DNA of 64,000 nucleotides from an uncultured Planctomycetia bacterium (GCA_964565425.1 CAZMEZ010000002.1:13953-77952); one strand, 5' to 3'. Shown: positions 1 through 62,002, counted from the first letter of the stretch. Notes: a model not told the origin generated them from the sequence alone. Made by a program: numbers and translations.

Positions 1-3000
1 AAACTACAGCTCGCCAGGCCGCCGGAAGAGATGAAGCAGGCGATCGAGGATGGCCTCGAGTTCATACATAATCATATCAACGAGAGATCGAAAGAAGAAG
101 TGCTTAGAAGGGCAAAAGAGAGGGAACGGGTTGAGCGGAGAGGTAACGAAATAGTGATGCCCGAAGCTTTTGAAGCGGAGGTGCAGAGGCTTACAGCCGA
201 TTCGATGGAGGTGCTTGTCGGGCCGATCGTGCGGAATCTCAAGGCGGAAGCGGACTACGCCGCCAAGATGAAGGACGTGGGAAAAGATACCGGAGTGGTC
301 CCGGGACCGGAAGCCCCGGACACCGGATTGGCCGGCGTGGACGGGATGATGAAGGCATCGGAGTTGATCGCTCACCTCAGGCATATCAAGACACTCAAGG
401 ATGAAGGGAAAATAACCCCCGCCGGGATCAAGATAGAGACAATGAAGGCGGAGTCCGTTATCGCGGAGCACGGCCTGGGCGAAGAGAGCCTGAAGGGTTT
501 CGAAGACCATGGCTTGAAGAGATCGCTTTGGGGCGTTTTACAGGAACTTTTGTCCGAGTTCAAGGGCGAAGGGGTTCCGGCTGAGGCTGCCGCTCCGGCA
601 ATAGTTCCGGCGAAGGAAGAAGGCAAACTCGGCATACTTACCGAAGCTTTTAAGGAAGCGGACCGGGAGCCCGAAGGCGCGGAGGCCGAAGGGAAAAAAG
701 TCGAGTTCGAGATAGTAAGCGCGAGAGGAACCGGCGCGGAAGAAACGCCGGAAGCTGCCGAAGAGACCCCGGCCGAAGAAACGCCGGAAGCTGCCGAAGA
801 GACCCCGGCGGAAGAAGTCCCGGAAGAGGCCGAAGGGGCCCCCGAAGAAGCCCCCGCACCCGTAGGATCGCTTTCTCCCCAAACGAAGAGATTCATGGAT
901 ATTCTCGATATAGACGATTCGCTCGATATATACGCTGTTATAGCCGGTGAATGCGAAGAGGCGGTAAAGTCGGGCAAGAACCCGGCTTACGATGTGGACA
1001 TGACCAGATGCCGGGAAGCGGCCCTGAAGGTCAAGAAAGAATCCGAAATGATAAGCATGAGCGTCAGTTCCTTTGCCGCGGAGATCCGGGTGCTGGAGAC
1101 GTCGAAGTACAAGGGCCTCAGGAAGGCCATCGGCGAGAAGATAAAAATAGCGCTCGGCCGGATAAATAAGAGATCGAGAGAAGAAGTGTCGGAAAAGCTG
1201 AACGCGAGACTTGAAAAAATGAAAACGGAGGATGAGCTCCCCTCCGATCTGGCGGGTCTTATCGAAGTGCTAATAACCATGCTCAACGATTCGGCCGGGA
1301 TCCTTGCCCGGCCGATAATAGCGGCGATCAGGGGAGAAGTGCCGGCCGTGGAAACCCCGGCCCAGAAAGTGTTCGGACTTTTGATTACCGCCCAGCAGGA
1401 TATCGAAGCCGGTAATTTCGCGCGCGCCCGGCAGAAGGCGCAGGAAGCGGGGAACATCGACCCCTCCAACAAAAGCGCGAAGGATCTCCTGAAACGCGTT
1501 GATGAAGCCGAGGCGGCCATTGCCGCCGAAGCCGCTGCCGCCGCGCAACCCGAAGCCGGAGAAGGGCCGGAAGCGGAGGAGGCGGAAGACGCTGAAGCGG
1601 CGCGTGCCGAGAAGTTGACCGCCCGGGAGATCATGAGAAAAACCGCGGAACTTATCATCAGGCTTGAACATATACAGCGGACCGCGCCTATTAAGAGGGA
1701 AGATGTCGCTGAAGTGGAAAGAGAGATAGAAGCGTCATGTATCAGCGCTGAGGCCCTCAAGAACGCGCGCGACCATACCGGCAAACCCCTGTGGGAAAAG
1801 CTGCAGGAAGCGCTTGCCGGGGTCAAGGCCCTGATGGAAAGGGAAAAGGCGGCTCCGGGAACGGAATCGATCATTCCCGTTATCAGGATCAAGAACACCA
1901 AGATACGCATGATGGTCGAAAGGGAAATGCTGAGCATGCAGGGATGGCTCATAGACTGGCGCAAGCAGATACAGGACGCCGAGGGCGTGCCCGACGTTGA
2001 AAGGCTCGAAAAGATAATCGCCGTCAAGAAAAAGGAACTCGATTTCAGGGCGAAGGAAATAGAGGCCAAAAAGAAGGGAATGGAAAAGGAGCTCGATGAG
2101 GCTCCACAGCCGGAAAAAGACGAGATAAACAGGGTCCTGTACGTCCTTTTCACGGAAGCCGTCGACGGCGACAGTGAAAAAGGCATACAGGGCGTCAGAC
2201 AGATAGTGGCCGGTAAGGGGGCCGGGATAATCGGCGATTACCTGCAGGATTGGGGTACGTTCGTGCAGGGGTCCGACGATTTCCTGAAGTTCAGCCTCGA
2301 GGAAGTGGAGGGTTACATAAGCGCCAGGCAAAAGGAGCTGAAAAGCCTGATGGCGAGATACGGTATCCCCGCCGCGCTGCCGGAACAAAAAGCGGAACTC
2401 GAGAACATGTTGAGCCTTCTGGCGGTTCAGGCCAGGGTAAGGGCTTCCCAGAAAAAAAGGCCGGAGCTCGAGGATACCCAGATCCTTATCAACCTGGACG
2501 CGCTGAGAGAAAAAGAGACCCAGGAGCTCAGCAGGAAAAGCTGGGTGAAGATACAGGCGGTCTCGCCCATACATCACGCGGAAACGCAGGCGCTTATCAG
2601 TTTGGCGAATAAAGGCGCTTCGATGAACGATATAGCCGATAAAGCGTTCGGCGTCATAGAGACGGCCATCAGGGATACGCAACAGAACGATCCTTACAGG
2701 CTCAAGCACAAATTCAGCAACCTGGTCGAAAAATCCTACGAGTCCGGCCTGCAGCTGAACATGGTGGGCCCCATGGAGGTCGCCGTGGCCAAGATATTGC
2801 CTACCATGGATGGCCAGGAAAAAGTGGAAACAGCGGAAGAAGCGCATAACCTCGCGCAGGAAACGCTCGACCAGATAAAAGCGGTTTACGACCAAAAGCC
2901 CGATCTTACCATGGACGATAGCGGCAGAAAACTCAGGGCGGAAGTGCTGTACATGGCGGAAAGCCTGCTTTCCAAGGCCATAGAAGCGAAGTTCCATCCG

Positions 3001-6000
3001 TTCCACAGGCTTTATGATTCGCAGAAAAAGGTCGTTAAAAAGGCCATAATAAACGAAACGACGGACAGGAAAGGCCGGACTAAGAGCAGGATAGGGCTAT
3101 TGCCCACCTCGGCCGGTAAGACCAAGGCCCTGTACACCGGCGCTTTCATCATGGCGATCCACGCGCTCAGCAACAGGGGTAAATCGGCCAGGGAGGGCAT
3201 ACTCATAACATCGACCGAAGAATCCAAGGCCAGGGAAGATGCCGAAGAGGCCGCCCAGGTCCTTTCCAAGCTCGGCGTGCAAGTGGGATTCATAGGCAGT
3301 ACTCCCGAGGGACAGCCCCAGGGATACCTGTACAGCGCCGATATAGACGATTTCAAGAAGGTCCCCGACAGCAGGGTATATGACGAAGCCGTGGTGGTTT
3401 ACGGTACCCTGGACAAGTTCGTCCACCGTTCGCAGCACGAGCAGGAATCCATAGTCCCGGCGGACCGGAAATTCATGCACCGCAGCTGGAGGCTGCGCCT
3501 TGACGAAGCGGATGTTCCGCTTATCTATGATGTCGCCAATCCGTTCATAATATCAAGCACACAGCACGATCCCTTCGTGATCCGTCTGGTGGACGGGATA
3601 GTCCGTGAATTCATACTTACAAAACCCGACAGTTATTCGGAGAACGTCAGGAAGAAAGAGGTGGAGCTGACCCCGCTCGGTATAGAGATACTCAAGGATA
3701 GGCTCATCATCGATGCCAACTTGAGCAATGACGAGATCAAAAGGGGCCTCGCCAGGTTCATGCGCATGGCGGAACTCGCCATAACCGCGCATATATACTA
3801 CGTTATCGATAAGAACTACACGGACGTGACCGTCCAGGGCAGGCGCGAAATAGTGTTCCTGGACGAAGGCACGAAAAGGCCGGTTTTCGGCAGGCTGCCT
3901 TACGATATGCAGGCCGCCATAGAGGCGAAAGAGGGCCTTTCGGTCCGGCCGGAGGAGAATTCGGAACTTATCCTGCAGATAGACAGCGTAATCCGCGAGA
4001 CCATAAAGGAGGACCCGTATCTTTACGAGCAGAAACCCGACGAAAGGTTCGTCAGGCTGAACAGGAAGGGCATAGAAGCGCTTAAAAAAGCCCTTACCGG
4101 CAAAGGCAGGAACGCCGAGGAAGTGGCCCGCGATATTTCGACCACCGAGGAACTTGCCGAAATGTCCCTCACGGCGCATCTTTACTACAAGCCCGGCGAG
4201 GATTACAGCATAATGAGAGTGGGCGATCACAGGGAAATAGTCCTTCTTGACGAGGGGACGGGCAAACCCATGTACGGAAGAAGGCTTTCCTACGGTCTTC
4301 ACGCGGCCATAGAAGCCAAGCATCACGCGGAAGGCATAAACGTGAAGCCGGAAGGGGTAATAACCTCGTGGACGACGCTCACGGGTTTCCTCAGACAGCC
4401 TTTTATCGTGTCGTTCGGCGGCGTGACCGCGACATGCGACGAGGACGCCATGCGGCAGCTTCACGGCGTCAAGACCGTCAACGTCCTGGAGGAATTGCGT
4501 GAGGAATTGGCGATAAGGGAATACAAGAAGGCTTACACGGAACTCGAAGTCGAGGAAAAGGCCAGGGTCGATAAACTGGTCCACGAGAGCCACAGGAAGG
4601 AATTGCCGCCCCGCATATATGAGACCCAGACCGAGAAGCTGAAAGCCGTATTCTGGGTAACGCGCAGGCAGAAAGAAAAGAACCCCGCAAGGCCGATATT
4701 GATCAAAGTGGCCAGTGATCTCGAGGCCGGCGAGATGGCGACCCTCCTGAAAAGGGCTCTCGGCGACGAGGCGAAGATCAATCTCATGACGGCGGCTACC
4801 TATGAGGATATAGACCAGATCAAACACGAGGCGGGCCAGGAAGGGTGCATAACCATAGTCACCAACCTCGGCGGCAGGGGTATAGACATAAAACTCAATG
4901 AGATGACCGATATGGTCGGCGGGCTTCTCGGTATATCGACGTATTTCGACGAACTTGCCGCTTCCGATATACAGTTCAGGGGACGCGTGGGAAGGAACAG
5001 GCATCCCGGCACGTGGATGGGATTCTGGTCCCTGGAGGACAGGGCCTTCAGGAAATACGCCGAAGCCCATCCCGAAGGCATACGCATATTAAGGGACATG
5101 ATCGCGCAAGTCAAGGCCGACGATACCAGGCCGGATAAATATATAGGCTGCGAAGAAAAAGTCGAAAGGGTAATAGACGAAATAAGGCTGAGCATCAGGA
5201 AAAGGCATATCTACGCGAGCCGACAGCACCAGGAGCTCTCGGAATACATAGAACGGCGCAGGGACGGTTTCTTCGCGCAGAGGGAAAACCTGATAGAGAA
5301 CCTGGTCACTGTCGTCGCGGCGATCAGCGAGGAAAAGAGAGATCTGAACGAAATAGACAGGCAGATACTCGATCACGGCGACGAATTCATGCAGCTTTTC
5401 GGAAAGGATATAAGGACCGAGGGCTGGACGCCGGATAACATAATCGGAAAGATCGAGGATATGTGCGATAACGATCCCGACATGGCCCAGAACCTGGTGG
5501 AACTGGCCAAGGTGGACGAAATAGCGGACCTCCTCGTTAAGGTGATCGGCCGGAGGGAGGTCCATCTCGAGAAGATAAAAGAGCTCGAGCGCGACAGGCA
5601 GAACATGATGATGCCCATAGTCAGGGCGAACGTATCCTGGCAAAGGTTCCTCGAGAGGGCCAATAACATACAGAAGGGCCTCGACCGTTTTCTCAGGCAT
5701 TACGGCTGGAGGCAATCGCTTCTCCAGATAGATCCCGTGGTCAACAGGGAACGCATGATAAAAGCGGCTTATGAATCGGAATTCGGCAGGAAAAAAATAA
5801 CCCCGGAAAAGATCCCCATGATCGTTCTCAGGGGTATCCTGACCGGTCTCGTTGTCGTTTCCATATTCATATATGCTCCGGCAGTGCTTGCCGGATTTTT
5901 CGGGATCCTGGGGATACCCTCGATACTGGGTTATGCGGGTTTGGCCGCGCTGGCAGCGCTTATAACCTTTAAACCCAGGGCCGGCGCGGCCGTCCTGGCC

Positions 6001-9000
6001 ATGACGGGTTTCTGGACGGCGTTCAAGTATATCACCGGTCTGATGAAAATATCCACCCTCTGGGGATCGATACCGAAGGACGCGTTCTCGGTCCTCTCCA
6101 CCGATATTAACCTTATTTTTGCCGTCGGGCTTATCGGTATAACAATGCTTGCAGCGGTGATCATACTGCAAAGGGGATTTCTCAGGCAGATGCAGACGGT
6201 GGACAAGTCCATAAGGGGTTTTGCCCGCGTTCGCTACGGCATAGAAATAGAAGGGGTAAATCCCGCGGCGGCTGTAGTGAAATACCTGGCGCAGCAACTG
6301 CTGGGTATTATAAATTACCTGGCGCCGTTCCTCGCGGGACTCTGCTTTGTAGTGGTGGCGGCGATACCCCCGTTCCTGGGAAGCAGCATAATTACGCTGC
6401 CCGCGGCGCTGGGGATAGGGACCGCGCTTGCCGCGACAGGGCTCGTTTCCACCGTGATCACGATCTTCGCCAACCGCAAGGAGATAAAGGGATTCGGCAT
6501 TATACGCCCGAGCCTGGGAAAAAGGTATATGAATACCGTAGTGGACGGCGTGCTCGCCGTGTCGGCCGGAGCGTTCTTCCTTTTCATGGCCCAGTGCGCG
6601 GGTTTGACGTACATGATCGCGGGTCTTCTCTTGTCCCTGTTGGCCATCCAGCTGGCCCGCAGTGTCGTGACGAGGAACATGGGCACGCATACCATACACA
6701 TGAGGACCTATCGGCTCGGAGCTCTTTCGAGCATTCCCGCCGCCGCGCTGGTCCTGGGATTGACGCGGATCCTGGGCATGACATTGGTGCCTTTCTGGAC
6801 AGTCTTTATACTCGCGTCCGTGCCTTTCATGATAACCGGTATCGGTTATGTCGCCGCGCAGTGGTATTCGGCCAAAAGGCTCTCCGAAATAAGCTCGAAA
6901 GTGACCGACATATCCAGGACAAGAAGTTTTATAGGCATAATCCTGGAGCAGAACCTCTTTAACGTAAGGCAATGGGCGCCTGCCGCGGGAACCGTGACGG
7001 GGCTTGTGGTCTTCATGGCGGGTCTTGTCGCCAAGAGCCCGGTCCTCAGCACGCTGTCAATATCCGCAGGGTTCGTGGCGGCGGTATTCCTGACAGCGGT
7101 CATCGCCGTGAAACTGCATAAGCTTTTTTCCGGGATAAAGTTGAGAAGAAAAGGGGATATTGCGGTCTCCGAAACCCGCTTGAAGGACATAAGGCTGGCC
7201 AGGAACGTGGTTTCAAAAGAAGAGCTGGGCAATATAATCAAAGCCGTTGAGGCGTTCAAGGCGGAGCGGCCCGGGACGGATAATCCGTATTCACTGGCCG
7301 TTAGTAAATTAAGGAAACGGGTTGTCGGCGGGTCGGTGCTGGAAAAGATACTCCACCAGATAACGATCCATGGCCCCCCGCCGGGCGGAAAATGGAACGA
7401 AAAAGAGCTCGAAAGCAGCATAAGACAGATACTGTTCAGGGAAACCGTCGATCTTTCCGGAGAACCCGTCAAAAAGGGAAGCGAAGACGGCGAGATCGCC
7501 GTAAAAGCCTTCAAATCGCTCTTCAAGGAATTCGGCCTTGTAAAGACCCCCATCGACAGGATGCTGGATACGGTAAGCAAACCGGAAAACTGGATGAAGG
7601 CCCTGGGAGAGTCTTTCCGTGTAGCCATAGGCCTTCCGCTTCTTGTGGACGGCGCCCAGAAAGCTTACACGAACAGGATGGAGGAAAAAAGACTCCATGA
7701 CGCCAGCGTACGGGCCCAAAAACATACCGAGGAAACGCGCCAGAGCCACATAACTTTTCTGCAGAGCAAGGAAGAGGATATAACACGGCTTCTTGATATC
7801 ATGAGGCAGGAGGCGCTTCAAGGCGATAGAAAAGCCTTCGATCCGCACATGGAGCTTTTCAAAAGGCTCATAACGGAATACGGCACTTATAAAACCGGGT
7901 ATTTCGTTCCCGCGGAAACGGAAATTTACGCGCGCAAGCGGGATATCTTCCTGAAAAAAGCCGAGGAAGCGGAGGCGTTGCTGGAGAAAGTGCTGGCGGA
8001 AAGAAAGGCGATGGAGAGATCGCAGCGCGCCGAGACCCTGAGGGGACTTACCGCGAAGATCGATGAGGCGCTTGAAAACATGAAAAAGGCGGCCGAAAAG
8101 GGAGACAGGGACGCCTTCGGCAGGGCCAAGATCGAGATGGACATCAAGCTCAAGCACCTTGAATCCTTCAAGGAAGATGCCGTCGAAGAAGCCGAGAAAA
8201 GGGCGATAGACGAACTTATCGCCAGGTACAGGGAACTTGCCGCCAAGATGGGAGAAAGGCTCAAGGCCCAGATGGAGGCTCGCGACTCACAGCTCGCCAG
8301 GTTGAGAGACCTTTTGGCCGACCTTAATACCGCCGCGATGTCAGGGCACGAGAACATTTTCAACGAGAAGCTGAATGAATTCGAAAAGGCGCTCCGCGAT
8401 TCCGACCTGGTCGCCGAAATAGAGAAGAAGAAATTCAAGAAGAGCGCCGAGAAGGCGAAGGATACGCTTGCCAGGAGGATCGAGGAACTCAGCAAGGAGA
8501 AGGACAAGAGAAGGGCCGCCCAGATCTCGGAGATAGAAACGCTGCTTGGTAAAATGGAAGGATCCGCGAAAAAAGCGGACGCGGCGGGATTCGCCAGGCT
8601 CAAGGAAGCTTTCGAGGGAGCGATCGAGACGGCGGACCTGGTCAGCGACGCGGACAAAACCGGCTTCGGGACGAGAGCCGGCCGGGCCGGGATCGTCCTC
8701 ATGGAGACCATGAAGAAGATGTTCGAATATCACGACAAGATAAGCAAATTTGTCATGGCCGCCCCGTCATACGCTTCGCCGGAAAAAGCGGCGAGCGCGA
8801 AAGAAGCCCGGGAAAATTTCAAAAAAGCGATGGAAGCGCTTAAAGCCGAAGCCCCGGAGGTTTACAGCCGGGAGCACGCGGATTCGGATCTCCGCCTGGC
8901 GGAGATACTTTTCGAAAAGGCCGTGAGCGAAAGGGTGGACTCGAGCGACGTAACGAAACTCCGGGTCCTGCTCAGGCGCGCCATGACCAGCGACCGCGAG

Positions 9001-12000
9001 GCCAGGTTCATAATAGATATCAGCGAAAAATTCGCCAAGCAGGAAGCCGTGGACACCAGGACGTTCGCCCAGATAGTTTTCGGTTACTATCTCGGAGGGA
9101 AGCTCCCGAGGAACTATTTCGGCAACGAAGCGGCAAGAGGCCAGGTGGTAACGCTTGACCTGAATGCGGTTCCCGCTTCGACACCGCTTTCCGTGGTGGA
9201 CCGGATAAGGCTTTCGAGCGCTTACGATACAAGGATGAACAACGGGCGCATGGAGCTCAGGATAAACGATAACGGGACGAGCACCCCCGCTGACGATATA
9301 TGGATACCGGCGGATCTTTATAACGAACACCTGCAGCAGATGTACCCGCTCATCCAGCAGCTCGCGCAACTGATGGGTTACAGCGGGATGGATTCCGCGT
9401 GGCAGTCAACCAATTTCGTGGTGGAAGCCGGGCAACCCGGGGCCGATTCGGAGCTTGTCCTCCTGAGGGACATGATGAACTGGCTCATCATAAGCCAGTA
9501 CACGGGCGATTACGGCGCTTCAGCGTCCGATATGCTGGGCGAGGTCCTCAAGAATTACGATGAGGTCAGGAAATACATGAACGAATACAACGGCAGTTTT
9601 TCGTTCAGCGACCCCGATGACGTCGCTTTTCTCCTGTGGCTTTCCTCCGAGACGGCGGACGGCAAGGACCTGGACGACCTTTTATATTATCCCAGGCAGT
9701 TCGCCAGGCTGATGGTGAGCTTCAACTGGTTCAACTCGGACAGGGCGTCCAGGCAGGAAGAAGTGAGAGCCGCGCAGATAAAAGGCATGGCCTGGTGGAA
9801 AACGGCCAGAAGCGAGAACATGCTTGATATCGTCCAGCAGTTCGTGCAGCTCAAGACGGCGCTGGGAGAGATCGCAAGGCTGGGGTCAGAGATATCAAAT
9901 ATAGAATCCCGAATGGCCGGTCTCGCGGCCGATATGATCATCCTCGAGGAAAGCATGGCCGTTGCCGGTGAAAAGGAAAAAAGCGATATCGCCGGGGAAA
10001 TAGAGGCCCTCAAGGTCGAGAAAACCCTCCTGGAATACAGGAAACTTTCTCTTATGAGGGAAAGGATCGCGGCCCGGGAACGTTCCAGGAAGCTCCGGAT
10101 ACGCATAAAGAGGGCGCTCGAGATGCCCAGGACGACGGATCTTCTCAAGGAACTGAACCTCGAGGAAATAAGCGAAATAGAATTGATCACGGCGCTCAAG
10201 GACCTCTGCGGCGAGTATTACGGGACAAGGCTTGAAGCGGCCCGGCAGTGGGTAGTGGAAGAGGCCAGGCGCATGCCCGGCCACGTCACGGCCACGCTGG
10301 ATTCGGGACTCGATCTGGATTTTGTCAGGATGTTCGAGATAACGGAAGTCGGCGATATAAGCACGGTGTCGCTTCTTAATTTCAACCTTGTGTGGAACCC
10401 GGCGACCACGCCGAAGGAGCGGGAAATAGCGCGTAAAAGGATAGAGGAAGCGGTCGCCAATTTCCGGGATGTGAGGAACGAGCTTGACGGCGAGATCTCA
10501 AGGTTGCATGCCGGCATAGAGACGATGGACTCGATCATAAAGAGCGACAGGGGCGTCCTTCTGGAAGCCAGGACCGCTTACGATCGCCTAATGGCCCTTA
10601 TGAAGAGATATCCCAACATGGTCGCCGCCGACGATATGCGCCGCGCGGTGGATGACCTTCGCCAGGCCGAGGATTCCCTGAGGGGCCACATGCAGGAACT
10701 CAGGATGCTCCAGGCCAGGCTGGATATGTACGGCGGGCCTTCTTCCGTGAAGCCGGCTTCGAAGAAAAAGACCGTGAGCCATCCCGGCGAACTTTTCTCG
10801 ATGGCCGTGGAGAACGGAAGGCTCGGGCGCGCCTGGGCAAAGGTAGCCATGGCAGAGGCCGTGAGGGACAGGATCGATGCGGACAAATGGTACCTGCCGA
10901 GCGTGGTTTTCAACATAAGCCTTTTCAAGGGATTCGAGGGGTGGGGGTGGAGGGAAGAGAACGCCCCGGACGACGATATATTCAAGGATTTCATAGATTG
11001 GTCGCGAACGGGCCTCAGCGCCGGCCTTTACCTGAGATGGCAGTTATTCGATCTCGGGAAAGAGAACCGCAGGCAGGCCGCGGAGTATTATCTCCAGTCG
11101 GCGATACTGGGATCCCGCGAGAGCGCGTCCAGGCTTACCGTCGACATAGCCAACGCCCTTTCGCGCATGAAACTCGCGCAGGACGAAGTGGATATCAAGA
11201 CCCGCCTGGTAAGGCAGAAGGCGGAGCTTCTTGAGGGGATGGAGCAGTCGCGCGACAGGGAACGTCAGATGTTCTATCTCAAACAGCTTCGCAGGGACCT
11301 GGCAAAAGCGAAGCAGGACCTTCGCCTGGCCGCCGAAACGTTGAGGACCACCATAGGCGCGACCAGCACGGAGGTCGAGATCGACGACGCCATGCTGGCT
11401 GATATCCATTCCGAACTCGAAAAATTCATGGCTAACCATCCGGAAAGATTCGTGCGCGGCGACGACGGGAAATGGCGCGTGACGCCTCAGGGGCAGCGCG
11501 AAATGGGCGCGCTTAAAAGGGAACTCGCGCGCATACATGACGAGCTCGAGGCGATGGAACGCGAAATGAGCCTTACGGTGGCCCAGAGATTCGAAATGCG
11601 CAGGCTTATAGGCAGCATAAAGGAAGCGCGCGGGATCCTGGACGAAACCTTCGAAGCGGGTAAAACGGTCCCGGCAAAAGTTTACAGGACGCTTCATCTC
11701 GCCCAATTGTCCCTTATCGAGCGCCAGATAAAAGAGGTTTCGGGCGACCACGTGCGCCTGGAACGATTCAGGATGGCTCTGAGAAGGATAAGCTCCGAAA
11801 CCGGGGAGGACGACATAAGGACCCGCGCCGAAAAGCTTATAGCCGAGGTCAATGCGGCGCTGGTAAAGGCATACAAGCGCGAGATAAGCAGGATATCCAA
11901 CAATGCGCACAGGTACGACGCCAGGACAGAGACGGAAAAGATGCAGCTGGTCCTTATCTACGGCCGGCAGATACTCGAAGTAGACCTCGCCGACAGTTAC

Positions 12001-15000
12001 GCCCAGGGAAAGATAAAGGAGGCGCGGGCGAGGCTTGAAGCGTTGAAGAAAAGATCCGAAGAGGACAGGGTGAAGGAGAATCTCGGGAATATGACGGATA
12101 AGCTGAATTCCACTCCCGGGGTTTTCACTTCTTACCGCGAGTACCTGGGGTATTGCGCCGAGGGGCTCGGCGTTTCGCTTGAGACCCGCGCTCTCGCGCA
12201 AAAAGGGACCATAGATCTCGGCAAAACGGATATAGACCGGACCGAATCGCGTCTTCTGGACGCCATATGGAACATGGTGGCCAGGACAGGCATCCCCGAA
12301 GCCTATTACAAGGATCACGCGCCGGAAAGACATTACGGCGCGGGCCGCATACCCACCCTCAAGCTGGAAGATTTCTACTGCGGGGTATTCAGGGGCAAAG
12401 CGACCGCCTTGAACGAGATATTCACCGGGAGGGCGCATAACGAGCTTGATGAACTTATCGAATACAGGCGCTTTCTGATCGACCTGAGGAACAGGCTCGA
12501 GCAGGTAAAAGGCGCGAACAGGGGCAAGGCCGCGGAACTCATAGTGCACATAGACGCGTATATCGCCCTGGTGGACCTCAAGATGAAACAGCTGGAAGAT
12601 AAGGGCGAAAAAACGCGGACCGAAACGGACAGGGAGAACGCGATAAACCGCGAGATATCCGGGATGGAGAGCGACCTCGGCCAGAGCTGGTTCCTCTTCA
12701 TACCGGTGGAGTTCCATACCACAAGGGGTTGGATGGAGGATTATATCAAGGTATTCAACCGCGTTTACAAGGCCAAGATGCTCGGCCCGGACGTGGAACA
12801 ACAGGAAAAGATAGACAAACTGGAAGCCCAGGCGCGCGATAAACTCGCCGAATCATACGGTGAGATCGAAGTGCGCGATGATACGGAAGACCTGATCTAC
12901 GACATCGAGCTCGCCCGGGCGCTCAGGCATTACGGTATCAACAGGTCCGGCTTCGAAAGCTCTTCGGAACTCGCGCTTCTCCGCCTGGCGAAGAAGAAGC
13001 TCGATGAAACGATAAAGAAGAACGAACCTAAACACTTCGACAGGGTGATCGGGGAAACGGCGGATGTGCTCAGGGTATGCCCCGCGGTCTACGCCGCGAG
13101 GCCGGATGGATACAGGACCTTCAGGGAAGAAATAGTGAAACGCCAGCAGGCTCTTTACAGGCTGGCCCTGAAGGACAGGATGCGCAAGACAGCCCTGCTG
13201 CAGGCGGAGATCGTTAAAGCCGACAATGACGACGCGGAAGATTATCTCGATGAACTGCAGGATGCCGAGAAAGCCCTGCGTTCCATATACCAGTCGCTCA
13301 TGGCCCATAACGAGGCCGAAGGCCTGGAAGCCGGTGAGGACGAGAAAACGGCGAGAGAAAAGCTCGACAGGATAAGCGATACCCGTTCGCTTATATATCT
13401 CAAGAAAGCGGTGTACGCGCTGGGCAGGATCGCGGATTTCGAGGATCACAAGGACGGTATATCGACAGATGACCTTGTGAAGCCCGCCGGCGCCGAAGAT
13501 AACGATGAACTTTACAGGGTCCCTCTCGTGACGAGATACACGAGCGACGACGCCGCGGCGATGGAAGGATATTTCCCCAACGTGCAGATAAGGATACTCC
13601 GCAGGTTGGCCGTCGGGGACGTGAGCAAAAGCAGGCTGGAAGCCGTGCTCGAGGCCACGGCCGAAGCGCTGAGGCACGACAGGAACAACAGGGAAGCGCA
13701 GGTGATACGCGGGGCGGTCCAGGACAAGTACACCCAGGTCCTCATAGACGAACTCGACAGGCTCTGGGACGGCGTTGACAGGAAGATAAAGAAGGGCGGG
13801 ACCGCGAGCGAAAGGGATATACGCAGGATAAAAGGGACGGCGGACAGGATACTCGACGTTAATTCGGACCGCCTGATAGAAGGGATAAAAGACGGCTCCA
13901 GCATCAACGAGATCCAGAGGATCAATGACAGGATAGCGGCCGTGGGGCTCAATCTCGACAGGATGCTGTCGGAAGATTGGGTCATAAGCGGCGACGGCAT
14001 GAGAATAGCGGAGATGATAATGAAGAGTTCCGAAAGGGCCGGCGGTAAGCATAATCCTTACCGGGAAGAGATCATAGCCCTCCTGAAACGCAGGTATCAC
14101 CTGCATTCGAGGGATGCCGTGCTCAAAGGCGGCCCGCTCGTTTACGTGCAGATCGGTATAAGCACCGACGGCGCCGGGCAACTGTTCGGGAAGACCATAA
14201 CAGCGCCGTGGACGAACCTGGTAAGCGCCGGGGTAACGCAGAACGGACTTTTCTGGCTGTCGTGGCCGATACGTAAAATACCGATAATAGGCAGGATATT
14301 CACCGCGATAACCGGCCTGGACGGTTATATCAAGTACCGCAAGGACGAGATGAGGCGGCAGGGCATAGGGGCCGAGGAAGAGCTCCGCAAGGCCGAAATG
14401 GCCGCCATACAGGAGTGGATAACCTTCTGGGGAACGGTGAAGGAATACCAGATCACCATGGCCGCCAGGAGTTCTTTAGAGAAGGAACTCCTGGCGTTAA
14501 GGGCGTCGCTTAAGGAAGACGAAGCGAGGACCACTTTTGCCAGGACATATACCGACAGGGTCTACCTCAGGACCCGCGTCGCCGACAAGGAGCTTGAACT
14601 GGCCCGCGTGGACGCGAAGGCGCGCATGCTGGAAACCAGGCTCGTGTCGATGGGAGTGAACGATCCGAAGGATTTCGTAACGGATGGATCGAAATTCGCC
14701 GCCGCGGGCTACGCCGATGAAAGACTGGATGAGGTCAGGAAGGTCTTCGGGGAACAGTTCGAGGAACTGGCCGGGAAAGGCGGCCTCGAGCTCAGGATCA
14801 AGGTAATGGAAGACCGGAGGTCTTCGGTGCAGCCTTCCATTACGGAGGGGTCGACCTCGATGGACCTGACCGTCAGGTACGGCAAGGGATATTTCGGGCG
14901 GAACGAGGAAAGGTGGAAGACTTCCGTGGAATTTACCAGGGAAGAGACGATAGCCGGGATAACCGACGCCATCGGCGGCTACAGCAGGGATTCACGCGCG

Positions 15001-18000
15001 TATCATGCCGCGGGCAGAGAACATGAATACCGCGCCGAAGAAAAGAAGAGGCTCGGCGATCTCGCGGACCTCAGCGTCCGGTACTGGGAAAGCGCCGCCA
15101 GGCATGAACAGCTCAGGCTCAAGCATGAGCTCGCGGTCAAGGCCTATAATGACGGGCTGGAGGAAAGAAAGGCCGGTCTTATGACCGAGAGCCAGATACG
15201 CGACCTGAGGAACTACCGGGACCAGATAAAAGGCGAGATGGACGCGGAAGCCGTCGAGATGGAAAAGATGGAAAAGCAGTTCAGGGTGCGTTTCGGCCTT
15301 GCCGCTCCCGACAGGAATTTCCTGAGGAACTTCGGTTCCACGCTCGCGCCGCTCGCGATCGATAAGATACTGGAGATGGTATCGAACGCCGGAAGTGACC
15401 TGGAATTCTCGCAGAATGACGAACTTCGCGCTCTCGAGGAATATATCAAGAGCAGCAGGGAAAAACAGAGCACCGCGCTTCACGCGCTTTCGAACATAAA
15501 GCTCGGCGTGCGTTTTCTCGACAGCGAGCTTACGACCGAGCCCGTGGACGCCTACATGCCGACGCTTACGTTCGTGTTGTACGGTTCGAACTGGACGTAT
15601 TCCCTGGAGAGAGCGCGCAGCGAGCACGTCCAGAATATTTACAACCTGGACCGGCGCCGGAAAGACCTCTTGGTGAGGTACGATACGAGGATAGCCGAAC
15701 TGGAATCGACGGCCGAGATGCTTAAGCTCGAGATGAAGAACCTCACGGACGTGAGCGGGAGCATGCAGCGGGAATACGAAGAGATAATGTCGGATTACAG
15801 GGCCCGGAGGATAAGCTTCCAGACGATGAAAACGCGTCTCCAGAACATAGACAGGAGCCGTTACGCGGCGAGCCTGGCGGCTTTTACGGGCGCTTATAAC
15901 AGGTTTATAACGATTGCGGGACAGCTCGGCGCGAAGATGCCCGAACTCGCGGCGGGAGCCGTAGCCGGTCCGGCGGAAGAGAAAAAAGAAGCCCCCAGGG
16001 CGGCAGAAAAGGCCGGTGAGCCCGTCTTTACGGCGGACAATATTCCGGCCAGATCCGAGTTCGAAAAGGGCATGAAGAGACGGACCGGATGGAGATGGGG
16101 CGATTACTGGGACAGCTACTGCGCCAGGCATAGCGAGGAGGAGATCAAGGTGTTCCTCAAGCGGCACGAACTTGAGCCTTCCCAGACCAACAAGGCGGGA
16201 TTCCGGGCCTTCCAGGAGGCGCTCGAGGAACTGTCCTCGAGGAGAGGGCATATCTTCGGTCCGGGCGGAGTTATCGAGCGGCTTTATGAACCGGGCCGCA
16301 TAGGAGACCTTTCGCTGATCGAACTGCCGCAGCTGCGCAAGGTCTACTGGGAAAGATTCTGGATAGTGCAGGAGAAGGCCGTGATACCGTTCCTGGAAAA
16401 GAAACTGAAATACAAGCCGGATACGGATAACGATTTTGCCCTGCTGATGGCCTGGACCGATCATGTAATGGGCAACGGCAGGGACGCGACGGAAATGAGG
16501 GTGTTCCTAAAGTCATCCATCGCCGAAGGCGATCTTGTCAACGCGGCTACCGCCAAATTGACGTCATTGAGCGAAGAGGATTACGGAAAGGTCGCGGCCA
16601 GGATGGCCGAAGAGGCGTTCCTGGTGACGGCCGACGAGCTTCAGGGCAGGGTCGAAACGATGGACACCGGCGTGGACAGTTTCAGGGAGCTCATGGCCTC
16701 GTTCCAGGAATGGACGGGCAGGTTCCTCGCCGAAGACATAAGATACGGCAACGAGGCCGACAGGTGGACGCTTTACCGCGTCGCGATACTCTCCCTCAGG
16801 GCCGGGGGCAGGGAGGAATTCCATCCGGACATGGCCCTAATGGAGCTTATAAAGAGCGTTTCCGGCGAGTTCTTCAACATAGAGCGGATGAAGGCGGAGG
16901 ACGCCATGAGGATGCCGGGCGCCGCAACGCTGAGGAAACTGTCGGACCTTATACACGAGCGCAAGGCCAGGGGAGAGGATACTACGGCCCTGGAAGTCGT
17001 CTTTAACGTGCACATGAGGGCCTTCAAGAGAGGGAAGAAGATAAACACGTGCTACGATTTCGCGAGATGGATAAGACGTGAGATCGACAATACCCAGAGG
17101 TGGCTGGACGAACATTACTCGGAATTGCCTAAGGAAAAGCGCCTCGAGCAGGCCATAAAGGACAGGGCCGCCAAAAAGGACTTTTATGTCCCGATGCTTA
17201 TCGTGTATCTTGCCGAAGCCAGGGCGGAAATACCCGGAATGGACGACCTGCTGAAGCCCGAGAACAGCAAGGTCCTGGAGAGCATGATGAAGTCCTATTT
17301 CGAGGACATGAAATACATACTGGACAACTACAGGGACTATTTCGCCGCCGGGGGGCATATAAGCGTTTATGATACGAATAACCCGGTCCTCCTGGAGGCG
17401 GCGAAGAAATGGGTGAGGTTCTACCGCGAGAACTTCGGCGCGAGGGACGAGTTCAAGGCGTTCATGGAAGGGCCGTACAGGGACCTGGTGACCAACGAGG
17501 ACGTCAAGGAATTCCTGCAGGAGGCCGCGGGCGTGGAGAACGTCGAAAGCCTCATGAGCGAGGACATGATGGTCCACGGCGGTTACCTGGCCAGGATACT
17601 CCAGAAGTACCATATCGACCCCAGGGACAAGAAAGCGGTCAGGAATTTCTGCGACCTGGCGCGCTACGTTTTCAAGGAGAACGAGTCGCTGGTCAAGTTC
17701 GAGGTGAGCGAGGGCAAGGAGACGATCAAGTATTTCATAGGCCTCGGCGAGATCATGGGGACGCTGGACTCGGTCGCCAGAAGGTCGTCCAGGACGCTCA
17801 CCGATGTCGTGAAGGACGACGCGCTGATGCCGGATATAAAGAAGCTTCTCAAGAAATACGGGTTCGAATACGTGGAGATATCGCGGCTGGTGAGACAGAC
17901 CGAAGGCCTGTTCAAAGGCAAACTGCCGTCGGGTGAAGTGGTGATGATAACGGCGCCTATAGTGGACGCGAAATTCAACGAAATAGGGACGTCGATATCG

Positions 18001-21000
18001 ATAAAGGACAGGGATAACAGGAACCTGGTCACGTTCACCAGGGTGCATGTCCAGGACAGGATACCCGAGGGTTACGCGAGAGATCTCCAGAAGAGGGAGA
18101 TCCTGGTTTACAGGATGGATTCGGCGTATCCGCAGGAGATCTTCCGCCTGCCCCGCGAGATCAAGGACGGCGACGCATTCACGCTGGACAGCCTGGTGGG
18201 CGCCTTCAAGATCGGTAACGTCACGTTCGAGGACGACGGAAAAGGCGGCAGGCTGATGGTCAAGACCTACCTGGAGGGTTACAGGGACGGCCAGAACAAT
18301 GTCGTGGTCAAGATAGGCCGGTCGGGTTACGGTAACACGGTATACGAAGAGAAGATAATCGGCGAGAAGAGGCAGAAAATATATTACGAGTATTATCCGA
18401 ACGGCAGCCTCAAAAGCGTGAGGTACGAGGGTATAGCTTACAGGCCGGATTCGTTCGCGGACAGGAAGGCTTATCTTTTCGCCGAGCAGCACGGTTTTAT
18501 AGTGTACACGGAATACGAGCCTTCGGGCGATCCGCTGGTGAACGGGGCGCCCGGAATGATAAGGTTCGGGGACGGGACGGTCTCCCTGTACGAGAACGGG
18601 CACGTAAAACGGATAGTTTTCGGCAGGCCCCACAGGCCGATCGATGATCCCGTTGATCACGCGTTCGCCGAGCAGCACGGTTTCATCACCGAAAAGGTCT
18701 ATGACGGTTCGGCGGAGGAAAAGGATGTCCTGACCAGGTACAAGGACGGTTCCGAGCGAAGATACGCCACGGCCGATAACCTGGCCGCGGTCAGGGATGA
18801 ACGGCGCGGGATAATGACGGCCAGGGCCGTTGATCCAATAGCGCCCGGCAACCTCGTGGAAGCGGTTTTCGGCGAGAACCCGCACGCTTTTACGAGGCGC
18901 GACGACGTCCTGAAGGCGATGGAACCGCTGCGTTCGGAGGAGAAAGGCGAACAGTTCTTCAGGATAAGGGGCGAGCAGGGCAGAAGGTACTGGACGCGCA
19001 TCAGGGAACTTCTCGCGAAAATAGAACTTACCCTCCGGGAGAAAGAATATACGGATGAAAGCCGCGAGACGGTAAAGGCCTTTATAGACGAACTCGAGGA
19101 CCTCCAGTCCGTGCTTAACGATGATCACCTGGAAAAGTTGCTCCTGCTGCTTAAGGATTATCATTTCGCGAAGGCCCACGGGTTCATCAAACGTGTAGTG
19201 TACGAAGGCACCCGCCTGGACGAAAGATCCAACGGCGGACGGCCCCTGAGGATAGAATACGCGGACGGGACCTGGATAAGGTTCGATTACAGCGCCCGCC
19301 CCGGAGACCTTAACGCGATAGAGAAGGATATATACGCGAATAACGCGAACTGTTACCTCAAGGTCGTCAGGGAAAAGGGCAAGGAAGAGATCAGGTATAT
19401 ATACATAAGCAAGGACCCGCGTCATCTCAGGGACGACCATCTTATTTATGTGGGATACGTCGACCCGTTCATCGATAGCCGCTTCGCCAAAGTGCACGGC
19501 GGAGTGACGGCCATCATTTATGACGGCTCCTCCAAGAACGGCGGGAATATACTGAAGAAATACTATAAGGACGGGTCGCGCGAGGAGTTCGAGTACAAGC
19601 CGCTCGGGATGTACACTAAGACCCTTTACGAGATGACCTACGTCAAGGGGATAAAGAGGGAAGTGAAGAAGGTTTTCGAATATGACGCCAAAGACCGCCT
19701 GGTCAGGATAATCTATTACAGTAAGGACGAACAGAATATCGAGGATTACAGGGACGAGTTCTATTATGACAAGGGTTACATTTTCGCCCACAGGGGGATA
19801 GGAAGACCGATACCCGGCAACATTATAGTGATCGAGACCGGTGATACCGGCGTGCCGGCGGAGAACGGCAGGATAAGCGTTTATACGGACAGCCGCGTCA
19901 GCATAAAGAACGCGGAAGCGTTCAAGGAGGCAGGCCGTCCGCAGTTCGTGTTCGATTTCAACCAGGCGATAGAGGATCTCGCGGCGCGGGGCGGGCTTAA
20001 CGGGATATTGACGGACCGGGACAAAGCCCATGACGGGGCCATATGGGGCCGGGATCCTTCCGGATCGCGCATGCTGGAAAAAGCGGTATGGCACGAGGAC
20101 GTCCTCGGGACACTGTCCACGATACTTTCCGAAGAAAGGTTTGACAGCGTGTTCGGCCGGATATCCGGCGTATGGGAAGCCGCTGTTTTAAGGGACGGCA
20201 GGTGGGCGCTTGAATACAAGAATGACAAGCAGAAGATAGCTTCGCACAAGCTTGTCGCCGACGGCATATACGCCGAGATGGCGAAGTTCCAGTCCGTCCT
20301 GGAGGATCTCGAGGGTAAAGGCGAACGGATGGACCATTTCAGGTTCGAGTGCTGGCAGAGGATACTGGTCCTCAAGATAAAAGCGTGGGAACGCCTTGCT
20401 TACAGGGAACTCGTGCTCGAGGCCGAAAAGCCGGGAACATGGATGGACGAAAGGACCGGGGTCAGGTGGTTCAGGAACGTAGTGCTTTCCTTCAGCCGGA
20501 GGAACGGCTGGGATATAGTGTACGAAGCGGTATCCGGGGTAAAGGACGCTGAGGTGACACGGGTCCGGACGGTGAACGTGGACGGCGAAGAAAGACCGGC
20601 GGAGAACGAGATAGAAAATATGAGGATAGGAGGAGAGGAACACACCATAACCGTGGACATGGAAAGAGCCGGCACGCTGGATATGAGCCGCGCTTCTCTC
20701 AGGTTCCTCGTGAACACGAATAAAGGCGCGTGGCCCGAGATCTCCATAACGGCGGTCGACGGGGAAGGGCGCGAAAGGACAATGAACGTTCCGGCCGATA
20801 TAGTGAAGCCGGAAGACCACAGGGATTACCAGATCGTGGAATTCACGCCCGCGCCCGGCAACATGAGCGATTACACGGGCGATGAGGATTTTGACGCCTC
20901 CGGCGTGAGGTCCATCAGTATAGTTTTCAAGAAGACCAGCGCGAAGGGAGAGATCGGCATCCGCGATATAACGATAGAAAGACAGGGGCCGGCCGTAGAC

Positions 21001-59968: not shown

Positions 59969-60048
59969 ATATCAGGGCTATATAAAACTTTTATATAATG
60001 GTATTTACGTTAATATAAAAGTTCGTTAAAACGTTATATTACATATAG

Positions 60049-60077
60049 TTGACAGAACAGTTGAATTTTTGTAAAAT
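60049..60077 (+). promoter_or_regulatory. Promoter for the ABC permease operon: TTGACA, 17-bp spacer, TAAAAT
   Basis: TTGACA at 60,049-60,054 and TAAAAT at 60,072-60,077 in an AT-rich spacer, about 55 nt upstream of the ATG at 60,132 (SD taaggtgg). Confidence 0.55.
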
Positions 60078-60131
60078 AAGTTCTCCTGCCTAAGGGATTT
60101 CAGGCTTTCGGTTGAATCATTAAGGTGGTTA

Positions 60132-61040: not shown

Positions 61041-61068
61041 TACAGCTGTAAGCTTTAAGCTGTAAGCT

Positions 61069-61953: not shown

Positions 61954-62002
61954 CGAGTGACGGGTGGCGCGTGACGGGTTACTGTAAAATAGAAAGGGTA
62001 AA

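Follow-up and report, generated by a model that had tools for sequence, protein, structure and literature searches.

The giant open reading frame P1, found in the 64,000-nucleotide stretch of DNA analyzed here (the window; GCA_964565425.1, CAZMEZ010000002.1:13953-77952), encodes a SecA-type motor in which the PPXD is duplicated in tandem and the two-helix finger is retained, followed in the same frame by a dedicated polytopic membrane domain (nt ~2983-7116, plus strand; table 1). Since the SecA-like core is paired with a homologous membrane domain in ten more distant relatives, the two constitute a conserved module, which probably assists in the export of portions of that same giant protein.

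P1 comprises at least 10,981 aa (ORF at nt 31..32976), counting from its earliest ATG, at nt 31. Because nt 1-30 contain no in-frame stop, the frame is open at the 5' end of the window and the true N-terminus probably lies upstream of it; the N-terminus of the ortholog L001, from a Candidatus Omnitrophota MAG, is ~1,350 residues longer than that of P1. Hydropathy analysis finds about 30 hydrophobic segments along the chain. Among its relatives, P0001, P0121, P0124-P0127 and P0331 are named Omnitrophota, and where homologs of the P2 N-domain have a named source, this is nearly always Omnitrophota or Omnitrophica, with one Planctomycetota MAG besides; with orthologs and relatives that are nearly all Omnitrophota MAGs, P1 is, by homology, of Omnitrophota origin. 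Long spurious antisense ORFs occur throughout the window, so that ORF length by itself is weak evidence, and some of the relatives are broken by gaps or contig ends. Both features would suit a module without function, left over from decay or produced by errors in assembly or ORF calling, a reading we regard as highly improbable: the frame runs uninterrupted for 32.9 kb, the independent Omnitrophota MAG is 44% identical to P1 over 4,974 aa, and the ATPase motifs are all intact in a motor that is the best-conserved segment.

The identity of the motor is supported by sequence profiles and by structural comparison. As the earlier note had anticipated, SecA-family HMMs match P1 above their gathering scores, namely P-loop_SecA (1.3e-16), SecA_PP_bind (4e-16, in two stretches) and SecA_DEAD (4.7e-6), and the hallmark motifs (Walker A, DEAD, III, V, VI and FWSLED), most of which it had recognized from the sequence, could all be located. 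The NCBIfam SecA subfamily model matches the module at 1.9e-61, and all 25 matches in a sequence search of the PDB are SecA or SecA2 (best 7.8e-28). In an alignment of P1 with 35 SecAs (36 sequences), the G-K-T, D-E-x-D and R..R columns are invariant. Foldseek searches with an AF2 model of the motor, built from an input alignment dominated by canonical SecAs, returned SecA or SecA2 structures as the top 34 matches in the PDB, with E down to 3e-25 and about the whole length of SecA aligned. The AF2 models are of modest or low confidence (pLDDT 62.5 and 54.5); in that of the motor, pLDDT is 80-89 in NBD2 and low in model residues 460-535, the stretch of the NBD1 return strand and insertion. The module thus compared is a real SecA-family motor with all catalytic motifs intact, as far as its sequence reveals, and it looks functional: catalytic competence is predicted from these motifs together with the retained parts that handle polypeptides.

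Table 1. Features of P1 in the window, in order of position.
Feature	Residues (aa)	Nucleotides	Strand	Basis
Giant ORF P1		1..32976	+	10,981 aa from ATG at nt 31; 5' end open
NBD1, N-terminal part	985-1182	2983..3576	+	Pfam SecA_DEAD; 64% identity to ortholog
Walker A, LLPTSAGKT	1023-1034	3097..3132	+	
Walker B/DEAD, RLDEADVPLIYDVANPFIISS	1156-1176	3496..3558	+	
PPXD copy 1, more diverged	~1183-1312	3577..3966	+	BLASTP vs copy 2; PPXD HMM
PPXD copy 2, canonical-like, GKPMYGRRLSYGLHAAIEAK	~1313-1441	3967..4353	+	Pfam; PPXD HMM 1.9e-16
NBD1 return strand and ~40-aa helical insertion ahead of NBD2		4354..4590	+	B. subtilis SecA alignment
Motif III, SFGGVTATCDED	1461-1472	4411..4446	+	
NBD2	1521-1690	4591..5100	+	Pfam P-loop_SecA 1.3e-16; PDB SecA alignments; 66% identity to ortholog
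Motif V, ITIVTNLGGRGIDIKL	1607-1622	4849..4896	+	
Motif VI, QFRGRVGR	1648-1660	4972..5010	+	
Family signature FWSLED	1665-1673	5023..5049	+	
Helical scaffold long helix (nt ~5170-5304) and wing-like insert		5101..5631	+	phmmer, AF2, Foldseek
TEGWTPDNIIGKIEDM in wing-like insert		5416..5463	+	
Two-helix finger (IRA1) equivalent, VSWQRFLERANNIQKGLDRFLRHYGWRQSLLQIDPVVNRERMIKAAYESEF	1868-1918	5632..5784	+	hhalign; T. thermophilus SecA alignment
Conserved polytopic membrane domain	1933-2362	5827..7116	+	Hydropathy and positive-inside analysis
Weak extra hydrophobic segment, FRVAIGLPLLVDGAQKAY	2529-2546	7615..7668	+	Below hydropathy threshold in P1

The tandem duplication of the PPXD, also claimed previously, is borne out by direct comparison of the two copies, which are 38% identical over 130 aa (BLASTP, E=3e-26), and by the canonical-PPXD HMM, which matches copy 1 (aa 1188-1309) at 2.3e-8 and copy 2 at the stronger value given in table 1. 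The strongest SecA_PP_bind stretch in Pfam (aa 1310-1428) coincides with copy 2, to which the single PPXD of the relatives also aligns; this copy is modeled with pLDDT 69-89, and the more diverged copy 1 has low pLDDT and 45% identity to the ortholog. On these alignments, the PPXD is inserted in NBD1 twice in tandem, and the duplication is a true one.

The ~240 aa that separate NBD2 from the first transmembrane helix include the long helix of the scaffold, followed by a wing-like insert and by the two-helix finger. Here the earlier view that the C-terminal domains of SecA had been replaced has to be corrected, since the scaffold helix and the finger are retained and the extreme C-terminal linker with its zinc-finger tail (GRNDPCPCGSGKK.K.CHG of the SecA consensus) is alone missing from P1. 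The phmmer alignments to SecA run on through the scaffold helix, which AF2 renders as a helix of 83 residues, and the alignment to T. thermophilus SecA (2IPC) extends through the finger, exactly where hhalign matches the family profile to that of canonical SecA (probability 97.4%, E=1.6e-11). The W and P columns of the finger are nearly invariant with canonical SecAs; its fingertip loop is ~6 residues longer in P1 than in the canonical protein, and the fingertip Tyr survives in the P1 clade and P0122 alone. At the position expected for the wing, P1 and its ortholog have an insert of ~95 aa with a 'GW..D..I' motif (model confidence 53-62) that is absent from most relatives, and its assignment as a wing is tentative.

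The membrane domain begins ~14 aa after the end of the finger. The polytopic block that had been noticed in the same frame proved to span 430 aa and, by hydropathy and positive-inside analysis, to have 11 clear helices and one probable, arranged as hairpins with outer loops of 2-5 aa and inner loops rich in K/R. It is collinear with the corresponding domain of seven relatives in their alignment, in which Pro positions in several helices and a basic amphipathic loop motif are conserved. A family HMM finds the domain once in P1-P3, in P1, and also in P0135 and P0331, both of which had been left out of HMM building, although P0331 shares its 90%-identity cluster with P0125, one of the training sequences. 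Searches detected no similarity of the domain to SecY, YidC, SecDF or any Pfam family; a fold search of the PDB with its model, which is weak, gave no match; and no internal pseudo-symmetry such as that of the two 5-TM halves of SecY/Sec61 was found. Consequently, of the motor-plus-channel fusion proposed in the earlier note, the fusion stands, being conserved across relatives, but the label of channel is unproven.

These data bear on whether the 12-helix domain could itself be a protein-conducting channel, so that motor and pore would form an autonomous translocon in one polypeptide, independent of SecYEG. The number of its helices far exceeds what anchoring needs, the pairing with the motor is obligatory in all relatives found, the Pro positions and basic loop motif are conserved, and the finger, an element that inserts into the funnel of SecY in the canonical complex, is kept close to the first helix. 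We nevertheless consider such a translocon unlikely, given the lack of resemblance to known channels in sequence, symmetry or fold, the very short outer loops, the low conservation of the domain (15-24% identity and one invariant residue across the family; 41% between orthologs, less than for the motor) and the presence of SecYEG reported for complete Omnitrophota genomes with SecA-bearing giant genes (West-Roberts et al. 2023).

The pairing itself is consistent across the family. A homologous membrane domain follows the SecA-like core in P0121/L001, P0122, P0124, P0125/P0331, P0126, P0127, P0138 and P0135, and the more distant L004 repeats the same layout of motor and then TM helices; indeed, core and membrane domain co-occur in all relatives recovered, even where the identity of the motor has fallen to ~28-30%. 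Within the ortholog pair, the identities of NBD1 and NBD2 compare with 36-47% in the flanks, making the motor the best-conserved part of the protein.

The module is nonetheless a divergent member of the SecA family. Its identity to canonical SecA is 17-25%, and it misses the equivalog cut-offs both for canonical SecA (TIGR00963 / PRK12904; 149.7 bits vs 800 and 161 vs 814) and for SecA2 (TIGR03714, 165.5 vs 930; TIGR04397, 167.5 vs 1085; TIGR04221, 97 vs 725), the best-scoring curated SecA/SecA2 model of any kind giving 208 bits against a cut-off of 862. These wide shortfalls, the very long branches of such SecA domains (West-Roberts et al. 2023), a doubled PPXD and a lengthened fingertip loop unlike those of working SecAs, and the restricted retention of the fingertip Tyr would all fit a SecA-derived SF2 ATPase that does other mechanical or regulatory work, such as conformational extension, extraction or unfolding, with the giant protein or prey components as its target and the membrane domain as anchor or scaffold only; the contradictions in topology described below, which suit a simple export model poorly, point the same way. 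That the module is no translocase seems quite unlikely to us, however, because PPXD and finger, which have no known role beyond polypeptide translocation, are conserved across the family, and several relatives continue after the module with signal-like segments and tails of exported type.

This downstream sequence is what favors a tethered, cis-acting export motor. In P0126, P0127, P0138 and P0331, a hydrophobic segment flanked by K/R comes after the membrane domain, ends in a small-x-small (A/G-x-A) motif resembling a signal peptidase site, and gives way to Pro/Thr/Ala-rich linkers; altogether, four or five relatives have a signal-peptide-like segment and exported-type sequence in this place. 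P0126 terminates in an SLT lytic transglycosylase domain (E=1e-9) with no later TM helix, so that its tail of ~3,000 aa must cross the membrane. In P1 the segment at aa 2529-2546 may be the counterpart of these signal-like segments, an assignment that is tentative because it lies below the hydropathy threshold, which is reached by the stronger equivalent in the ortholog P0121 (FLFSIGFPLLVGGAKA, followed by AY). The dedicated export engine suggested by the earlier note is plausible, and a role of this kind had already been proposed in a preprint.

We prefer, with confidence that is about evenly balanced, to view the module as a dedicated cis-acting export motor of the SecA type, tethered by its own membrane domain within a giant Omnitrophota protein. 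Besides the exported-type tails of the relatives, the strong conservation of the motor, the retention of PPXD and finger and the conserved TM pairing speak for such a motor. Against it stand the weakness of the signal segment in P1 and the topology predicted by the positive-inside rule, with an even helix count and both ends of the membrane domain cytoplasmic. Moreover, the 8,600 aa of P1 downstream of the module show no recognizable extracytoplasmic domain except for a single OEP (TolC-family) match in Pfam, which does not recur in the ortholog. Where the N-terminus of a family member is complete, the protein begins with a signal-peptide-like segment and no hydrophobic helix precedes the TM domain, an arrangement that, taken literally, would make the ATPase extracytoplasmic.

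SecA domains next to membrane regions are not new, and to call the arrangement unlike anything known would be an overstatement: divergent SecA DEAD and PPXD domains beside TM regions are common in giant proteins of Omnitrophota, for which self-export has been guessed and in whose complete genomes, where examined, canonical SecA and SecYEG are encoded elsewhere (West-Roberts et al. 2023, bioRxiv 10.1101/2023.11.21.568195). P1 resembles these proteins in its phylum, in being a very long multi-TM chain with SecA_DEAD, SecA_PP_bind and adjoining TM regions, and in its neighbors for carbohydrate uptake and hydrolysis, since two ABC permeases and a GH113 with an F5/8 type C domain lie downstream in the window. 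It is below the threshold of >30,000 aa for giant proteins in that study but inside the class of long proteins (≥10 kAA) of a later preprint, which describes a PF07517 architecture cluster (bioRxiv 10.64898/2026.06.07.730766). Both preprints report the SecA domains to be without scaffold and wing, whereas in P1 the long scaffold helix is present and so is the finger; neither mentions a tandem PPXD, and in neither is the SecA core said to be followed invariably by a homologous TM domain dedicated to it. P1 adds as new details a doubled PPXD, a finger that has been kept and a TM domain dedicated to the motor.

Canonical SecA (B. subtilis 1M6N/5EUL, T. maritima 3DIN) aligns with the module in structure over its full length and has the same order of domains, NBD1 [PPXD] NBD1 - NBD2 - scaffold - two-helix finger, with the wing between the last two assigned tentatively in P1; Walker A, the DEAD box and motifs III, V and VI are common to both. 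It differs in its single PPXD, its C-terminal linker and zinc finger, its shorter fingertip loop and in being soluble and binding SecYEG reversibly, whereas the motor of P1 is covalently joined to the 12-helix domain inside a giant protein. SecA2 of accessory Sec systems (6SXH, 4UAQ), the divergent second SecA of Gram-positives, mycobacteria and Clostridioides that serves particular, often very large surface proteins, likewise has a reduced C-terminal region, and the module matches it in HMM and fold searches about as well as it matches SecA; unlike P1, SecA2 is a separate soluble protein with SecY2 and Asp partners, without TM fusion or PPXD duplication, and the 64-kb window contains no SecY2/Asp genes or known SecA2 partners. 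Type I secretion ABC exporters of the HlyB/LapB type, which handle giant adhesins and RTX proteins, offer a functional analogy only: their ATPase is fused to a membrane domain and their cargo is very large and repetitive, with the OEP match of P1 as a TolC-family parallel, but the fold is that of ABC rather than SecA/SF2 proteins, and motor and cargo are separate polypeptides.

The comparisons above establish the homology, the intact motifs, the duplication, the retained finger and the conserved TM pairing, whereas translocation by the module, its cargo and its conduit are inferred. As a complete SecA-type ATPase (NBD1, two PPXDs, NBD2, scaffold and finger), the module would be permanently anchored in the cytoplasmic membrane by its domain of 11-12 helices, and this part of P1 would be synthesized and inserted first. 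The motor could then capture the downstream part of the same chain as it emerges, possibly also neighboring sister giant proteins, and push it across the inner membrane at the expense of ATP, with either its own membrane domain or the SecYEG of the housekeeping system as conduit. It is rather improbable that core and membrane domain amount to a novel type of translocon, complete in itself, which unites the motor with a non-SecY protein-conducting pathway in one polypeptide and uses the doubled PPXD as a two-stage clamp; if this were true, an ultra-small bacterium would export chains of several thousand residues without the housekeeping Sec machinery.

The SecA-like module lies in P1, the first of three giant ORFs (P1 to P3) that fill almost the whole of the 64 kb window (see table). 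Judged from sequence, its resemblance to SecA is real and strong. Pfam finds P-loop_SecA (1.3e-16), SecA_PP_bind (4e-16, in two stretches) and SecA_DEAD (4.7e-6) in P1, all above gathering score; phmmer against PDB sequences returns 25 matches, every one of them SecA or SecA2 (best 7.8e-28), and the NCBIfam SecA subfamily model matches at 1.9e-61, with a score of 208 bits that does not approach the curated SecA/SecA2 cut-offs (862). Across an alignment of 36 sequences that includes canonical SecAs, no variation is seen in the G-K-T of Walker A, in the D-E-x-D box or in the arginines of motif VI. These matches and invariant catalytic columns bear out the earlier note, which had recognised a SecA-like ATPase with all hallmark motifs. 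No second SecA-like module was found elsewhere in P1, P2 or P3, and the rest of P1 outside the module has no PDB sequence relative.

The tandem duplication of the substrate-clamp domain (PPXD) claimed previously is equally evident: the two copies share 38% identity across 130 residues (E=3e-26) and both match an HMM made from canonical PPXDs. Copy 2 is the more canonical, and the one PPXD that relatives have aligns with it; the database fragment P0001 stops just inside copy 2. Among the 276 SecA-superfamily proteins examined the tandem is restricted to P1 and its ortholog, and on this comparison the duplication is clade-specific.

The claim that membrane helices stand instead of the C-terminal domains of SecA does not hold, since phmmer, hhalign and Foldseek show the scaffold helix and the two-helix finger to be retained. 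Alignments with the SecA of B. subtilis and C. difficile extend into the scaffold helix, and that with T. thermophilus SecA reaches the finger ('W..FLE...IQKGLDRFLRHYG' vs 'WKEHLHNLDVLRQGI--FLRGYG'); hhalign of the post-NBD2 profile of eight family members against the canonical SecA profile gives a match exactly at the finger (probability 97.4%, E=1.6e-11). NBD1, PPXD-2 and NBD2 come out well in an AlphaFold2 model of P1 aa 985-1935 (pLDDT 62.5), PPXD-1 poorly. The predicted structure agrees with the SecA assignment, the top 34 PDB matches in Foldseek all being SecA or SecA2 (with E as low as 3e-25, approximately the whole SecA chain aligned), with the caveat that the alignment behind the model consists mostly of canonical SecAs. 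Of the canonical layout, only the C-terminal linker and the zinc-finger tail are missing. The motor has the full SecA core, finger included, and is more than a bare helicase fragment. As regards the scaffold, this contradicts, at least for the P1 family, a previous study reporting that the SecA domains of Omnitrophota giant proteins lack scaffold and wing (West-Roberts et al., bioRxiv 10.1101/2023.11.21.568195).

The first transmembrane (TM) helix starts 14 residues past the finger and opens a hydrophobic block of 11 clear helices and one probable, confirming the proposed fusion to a domain of about 10-12 helices. Its hairpins have outer loops of 2-5 residues and K/R-rich inner loops; for P1, the positive-inside rule points to 12 helices and a cytoplasmic location of both ends. 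A few prolines are conserved, and one arginine is invariant. Eight family members were compared with Pfam and none has a match in this domain at E<=1, NCBIfam has none either, and fold searches with the TM model returned only MFS noise and generic helix bundles. We rejected the domain as SecY-like (hhalign against E. coli SecY, probability only 0.25%) and as internally duplicated, its two halves having no mutual similarity; nor are other TM blocks of P1 extra copies of it, for an HMM of the block finds a single copy in P1 (zero in P2 and P3). The motor-plus-channel proposal of the earlier note thus stands in part: a motor is fused to a conserved polytopic domain, but this domain has no likeness to SecY or to any Pfam family, and that it is itself the channel appears unlikely. 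TM regions adjoining the SecA domains of giant proteins may anchor them (West-Roberts et al.).

An exhaustive HMMER search with P1 aa 1171-2370 recovered one ortholog, P0121 (E=0, 50% identity), and only a handful of other strong matches among 1.84 billion representatives. The locus L001, from a Candidatus Omnitrophota MAG, has an ORF of at least 6,527 aa; P0121 matches part of this ORF at 99.8% identity, and the ORF is 44% identical to P1 over 4,974 aa. L001 and L002 were retrieved with search patterns from a 3-sequence alignment; neither a scan of genome contigs with a single protein nor a word-indexed search of proteins with the alignment of the TM domain gave a match. In P0122 (= L002), P0124, P0125/P0331, P0126, P0127, P0138 and P0135, a SecA-like core has the family signature 'QF[RK]GRVGR...FWSLED', and a polytopic block, collinear in alignment with that of P1, lies within ~200-300 residues downstream. 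The block HMM picks up P0135 and P0331, both outside its training set, although P0331 shares a 90%-identity cluster with the training sequence P0125 and P0135 is thus the sole fully independent detection. The more distant metagenomic ORF in L004 has the same layout, whereas loci L005-L008 carry other SecA-like proteins without the P1-type module. In all relatives found, the predicted motor always comes with this one particular membrane domain. Named sources are Omnitrophota, except for one unclassified bacterium and one Endomicrobiales MAG; the protein of the latter, P0138 (1,997 aa, annotated 'SecA, partial'), is a family member outside Omnitrophota with a long Pro/Thr-rich linker after its signal-like segment.

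Comparison of P1 with its ortholog shows conservation to be highest in the motor, with identities of 64% in NBD1, 66% in NBD2, 57% in PPXD-2 and 45% in PPXD-1, against 41% in the TM block and 36-47% in the flanks. That the module is a relic or an artefact is scarcely credible beside this conservation. The lengths of database 'proteins' in the family often are artefacts: P0124 was rejected as a stand-alone SecA-plus-TM protein of 1,483 aa, because its 3' end adjoins a 42-N scaffold gap, the next ORF is in frame and NCBI labels it partial, the gap splitting one long gene into two called proteins, of which the fragment beside P0124 has at least 2,046 aa. By eye, P0122 (contig JAGLYT010000037.1) seems to have a second, degenerate SecA-like stretch at aa ~1-520, upstream of its clear module ('...GMSGTFGE...', '...GGKTIGRGFDAG...', '...REGRVARQSDAG...'), which phmmer does not detect.

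Features of the P1-P3 region and of related loci (window positions unless a locus or other protein is named)
Feature	Nucleotides	Strand	Residues	Remark
P1	31-32976	+	10,981 aa	ORF list
P2	33324-51002	+	5,892 aa	ORF list
P3	51171-59897	+	2,908 aa	ORF list
Stretch of P1 with the SecA-like module	2800-7140		P1 924-2370
PPXD copy 1			P1 ~1183-1312
PPXD copy 2			P1 ~1313-1441
Membrane domain			P1 1933-2362
Putative counterpart of the post-block signal-like segment			P1 2529-2546	weak
OEP match	10858-11358		P1 3610-3776	E=2e-9
N-domain and signal-like segment, P2	33324-35420
PPDK_N and PEP-utilising mobile domains	47019-48308		P2 ~4566-4995
N-domain and signal-like segment, P3	51171-52800
Phosphoglucomutase/phosphomannomutase domains	55971-57566		P3 1601-2132	all four
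Two ABC sugar-type permeases (BPD_transp_1); GH113 glycoside hydrolase with F5/8 type C carbohydrate-binding domain	60132-63601			directly downstream of giant ORFs
Long antisense ORFs (examples)	3553-5070, 5089-6972, 16837-20094, 20188-22755	-	up to 1,085 aa	overlap giant genes
N-domain and signal-like segment, L001	938-3100
N-domain and signal-like segment, L003	7455-10022
Scaffold gap, L003	14450-14491
SLT lytic transglycosylase			P0126 ~5240-5330	E=1e-9

What follows the block in several relatives differs from P1 and suggests export. In P0126, P0127, P0138 and P0331 a basic stretch comes next, then another hydrophobic segment with a small-x-small (A/G-x-A) motif like that of signal peptidase sites at its end, and then Pro/Thr/Ala-rich linkers; P0121 has a comparable segment ~170 residues past its block, and the putative counterpart in P1 is weak. 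P0126, an Omnitrophota MAG protein of 5,423 aa, ends in an SLT lytic transglycosylase without a further TM helix, so its tail must be exported, and this domain is in keeping with the attack on cell walls that has been proposed for proteins of this kind.

The 5' end of P1 is open, nt 1-30 containing no in-frame stop upstream of the first ATG, so the gene runs off the window; as the L001 ortholog has ~1,350 extra N-terminal residues, P1 probably exceeds 12,000 aa. The L001 ORF and P0331, relatives whose N-termini are complete, begin with a signal-peptide-like segment and a conserved N-domain of ~550-700 aa that also opens P2 and P3. This N-domain has 61 homologs, of which the named ones are almost all Omnitrophota (one Planctomycetota MAG; ~22 without name), including one annotated 'secreted' in Ca. 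Omnitrophus magneticus; Pfam yields nothing for it at E<=5, and it has no relative among PDB sequences. The N-domain seems to be an N-terminal module specific to the giant proteins of this phylum. Its association with the SecA module was considered and rejected as a Rosetta-stone link to cargo, the domain being a common giant-protein N-terminus present also in the P1 ortholog. No hydrophobic helix separates the signal-like N-terminus from the SecA-adjacent block (L001 ORF aa 44-3375; P0331, in L011, aa 13-1745), which read literally would place the ATPase outside the cytoplasm. A signal-like N-terminus on a cytoplasmic, ATP-dependent motor is the remaining contradiction in the topology; localisation predictions for Omnitrophota giant proteins are reportedly unreliable (West-Roberts et al.).

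The rest of the window offers further observations. Giant genes have been reported to be linked to carbohydrate import, and the neighbouring permeases and GH113 agree with this; GC is 0.46 at nt 60001-62000 vs ~0.55 elsewhere. The plus strand is strongly purine-rich across the entire window, and the long antisense ORFs are therefore probably by-products of composition. A single Pfam OEP (TolC-family outer-membrane factor) match in P1, above gathering score and spanning 164 of 187 profile positions, is absent from the orthologous stretch of P0121 and may be a genuine TolC-like repeat or a coiled-coil look-alike. P2 has parts of phosphotransferase-type enzymes embedded deep in a multi-TM giant protein, and P3, with its phosphoglucomutase domains, opens with a signal-like segment.

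The most coherent reading, on which we are evenly balanced, is that of a stoichiometric, pre-positioned motor. The SecA-like core would be synthesised first, with its own domain holding it at the membrane; the hydrophobic segment and long tail that come next would then emerge beside the motor and be threaded out, a dedicated motor sparing the housekeeping SecA. We infer that the module moves polypeptide, which polypeptide it moves and by what conduit; the proteins themselves show homology to SecA, motifs that are intact, a clamp and finger that are kept, a conserved pairing with the TM domain and, in relatives, tails of exported type. Set beside these features, a non-translocase role of the module seems distinctly improbable.

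West-Roberts et al. found divergent SecA DEAD and preprotein-binding domains in most Omnitrophota giant genes, reported canonical SecA and SecYEG elsewhere in the genomes concerned and suggested that the divergent domains may export the giant protein itself, and a 2026 preprint (bioRxiv 10.64898/2026.06.07.730766) names a PF07517 cluster among the architectures of long Omnitrophota proteins; our literature search found no further relevant paper. The general phenomenon is therefore already in the literature, and the value of the present analysis is refinement and correction, not discovery. Three points seem to be new: scaffold and finger are kept, the PPXD is doubled in a single clade, and the motor has a dedicated TM domain, homologous across relatives, with which it makes up a module of ~1,380 residues.

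To our knowledge, a SecA motor built into the cargo is the sole recognisable secretion component of these giant proteins, in a size class of 10,000-100,000 residues that bacteria must move into and across a membrane. The module (P1 aa 985-2362) is a compact unit suited to expression, imaging and testing. Translocation by the module alone would make it a SecA-driven pathway of a second kind; as a feeder of SecYEG, it would be a case from nature of a SecA tethered permanently and dedicated to its substrate.
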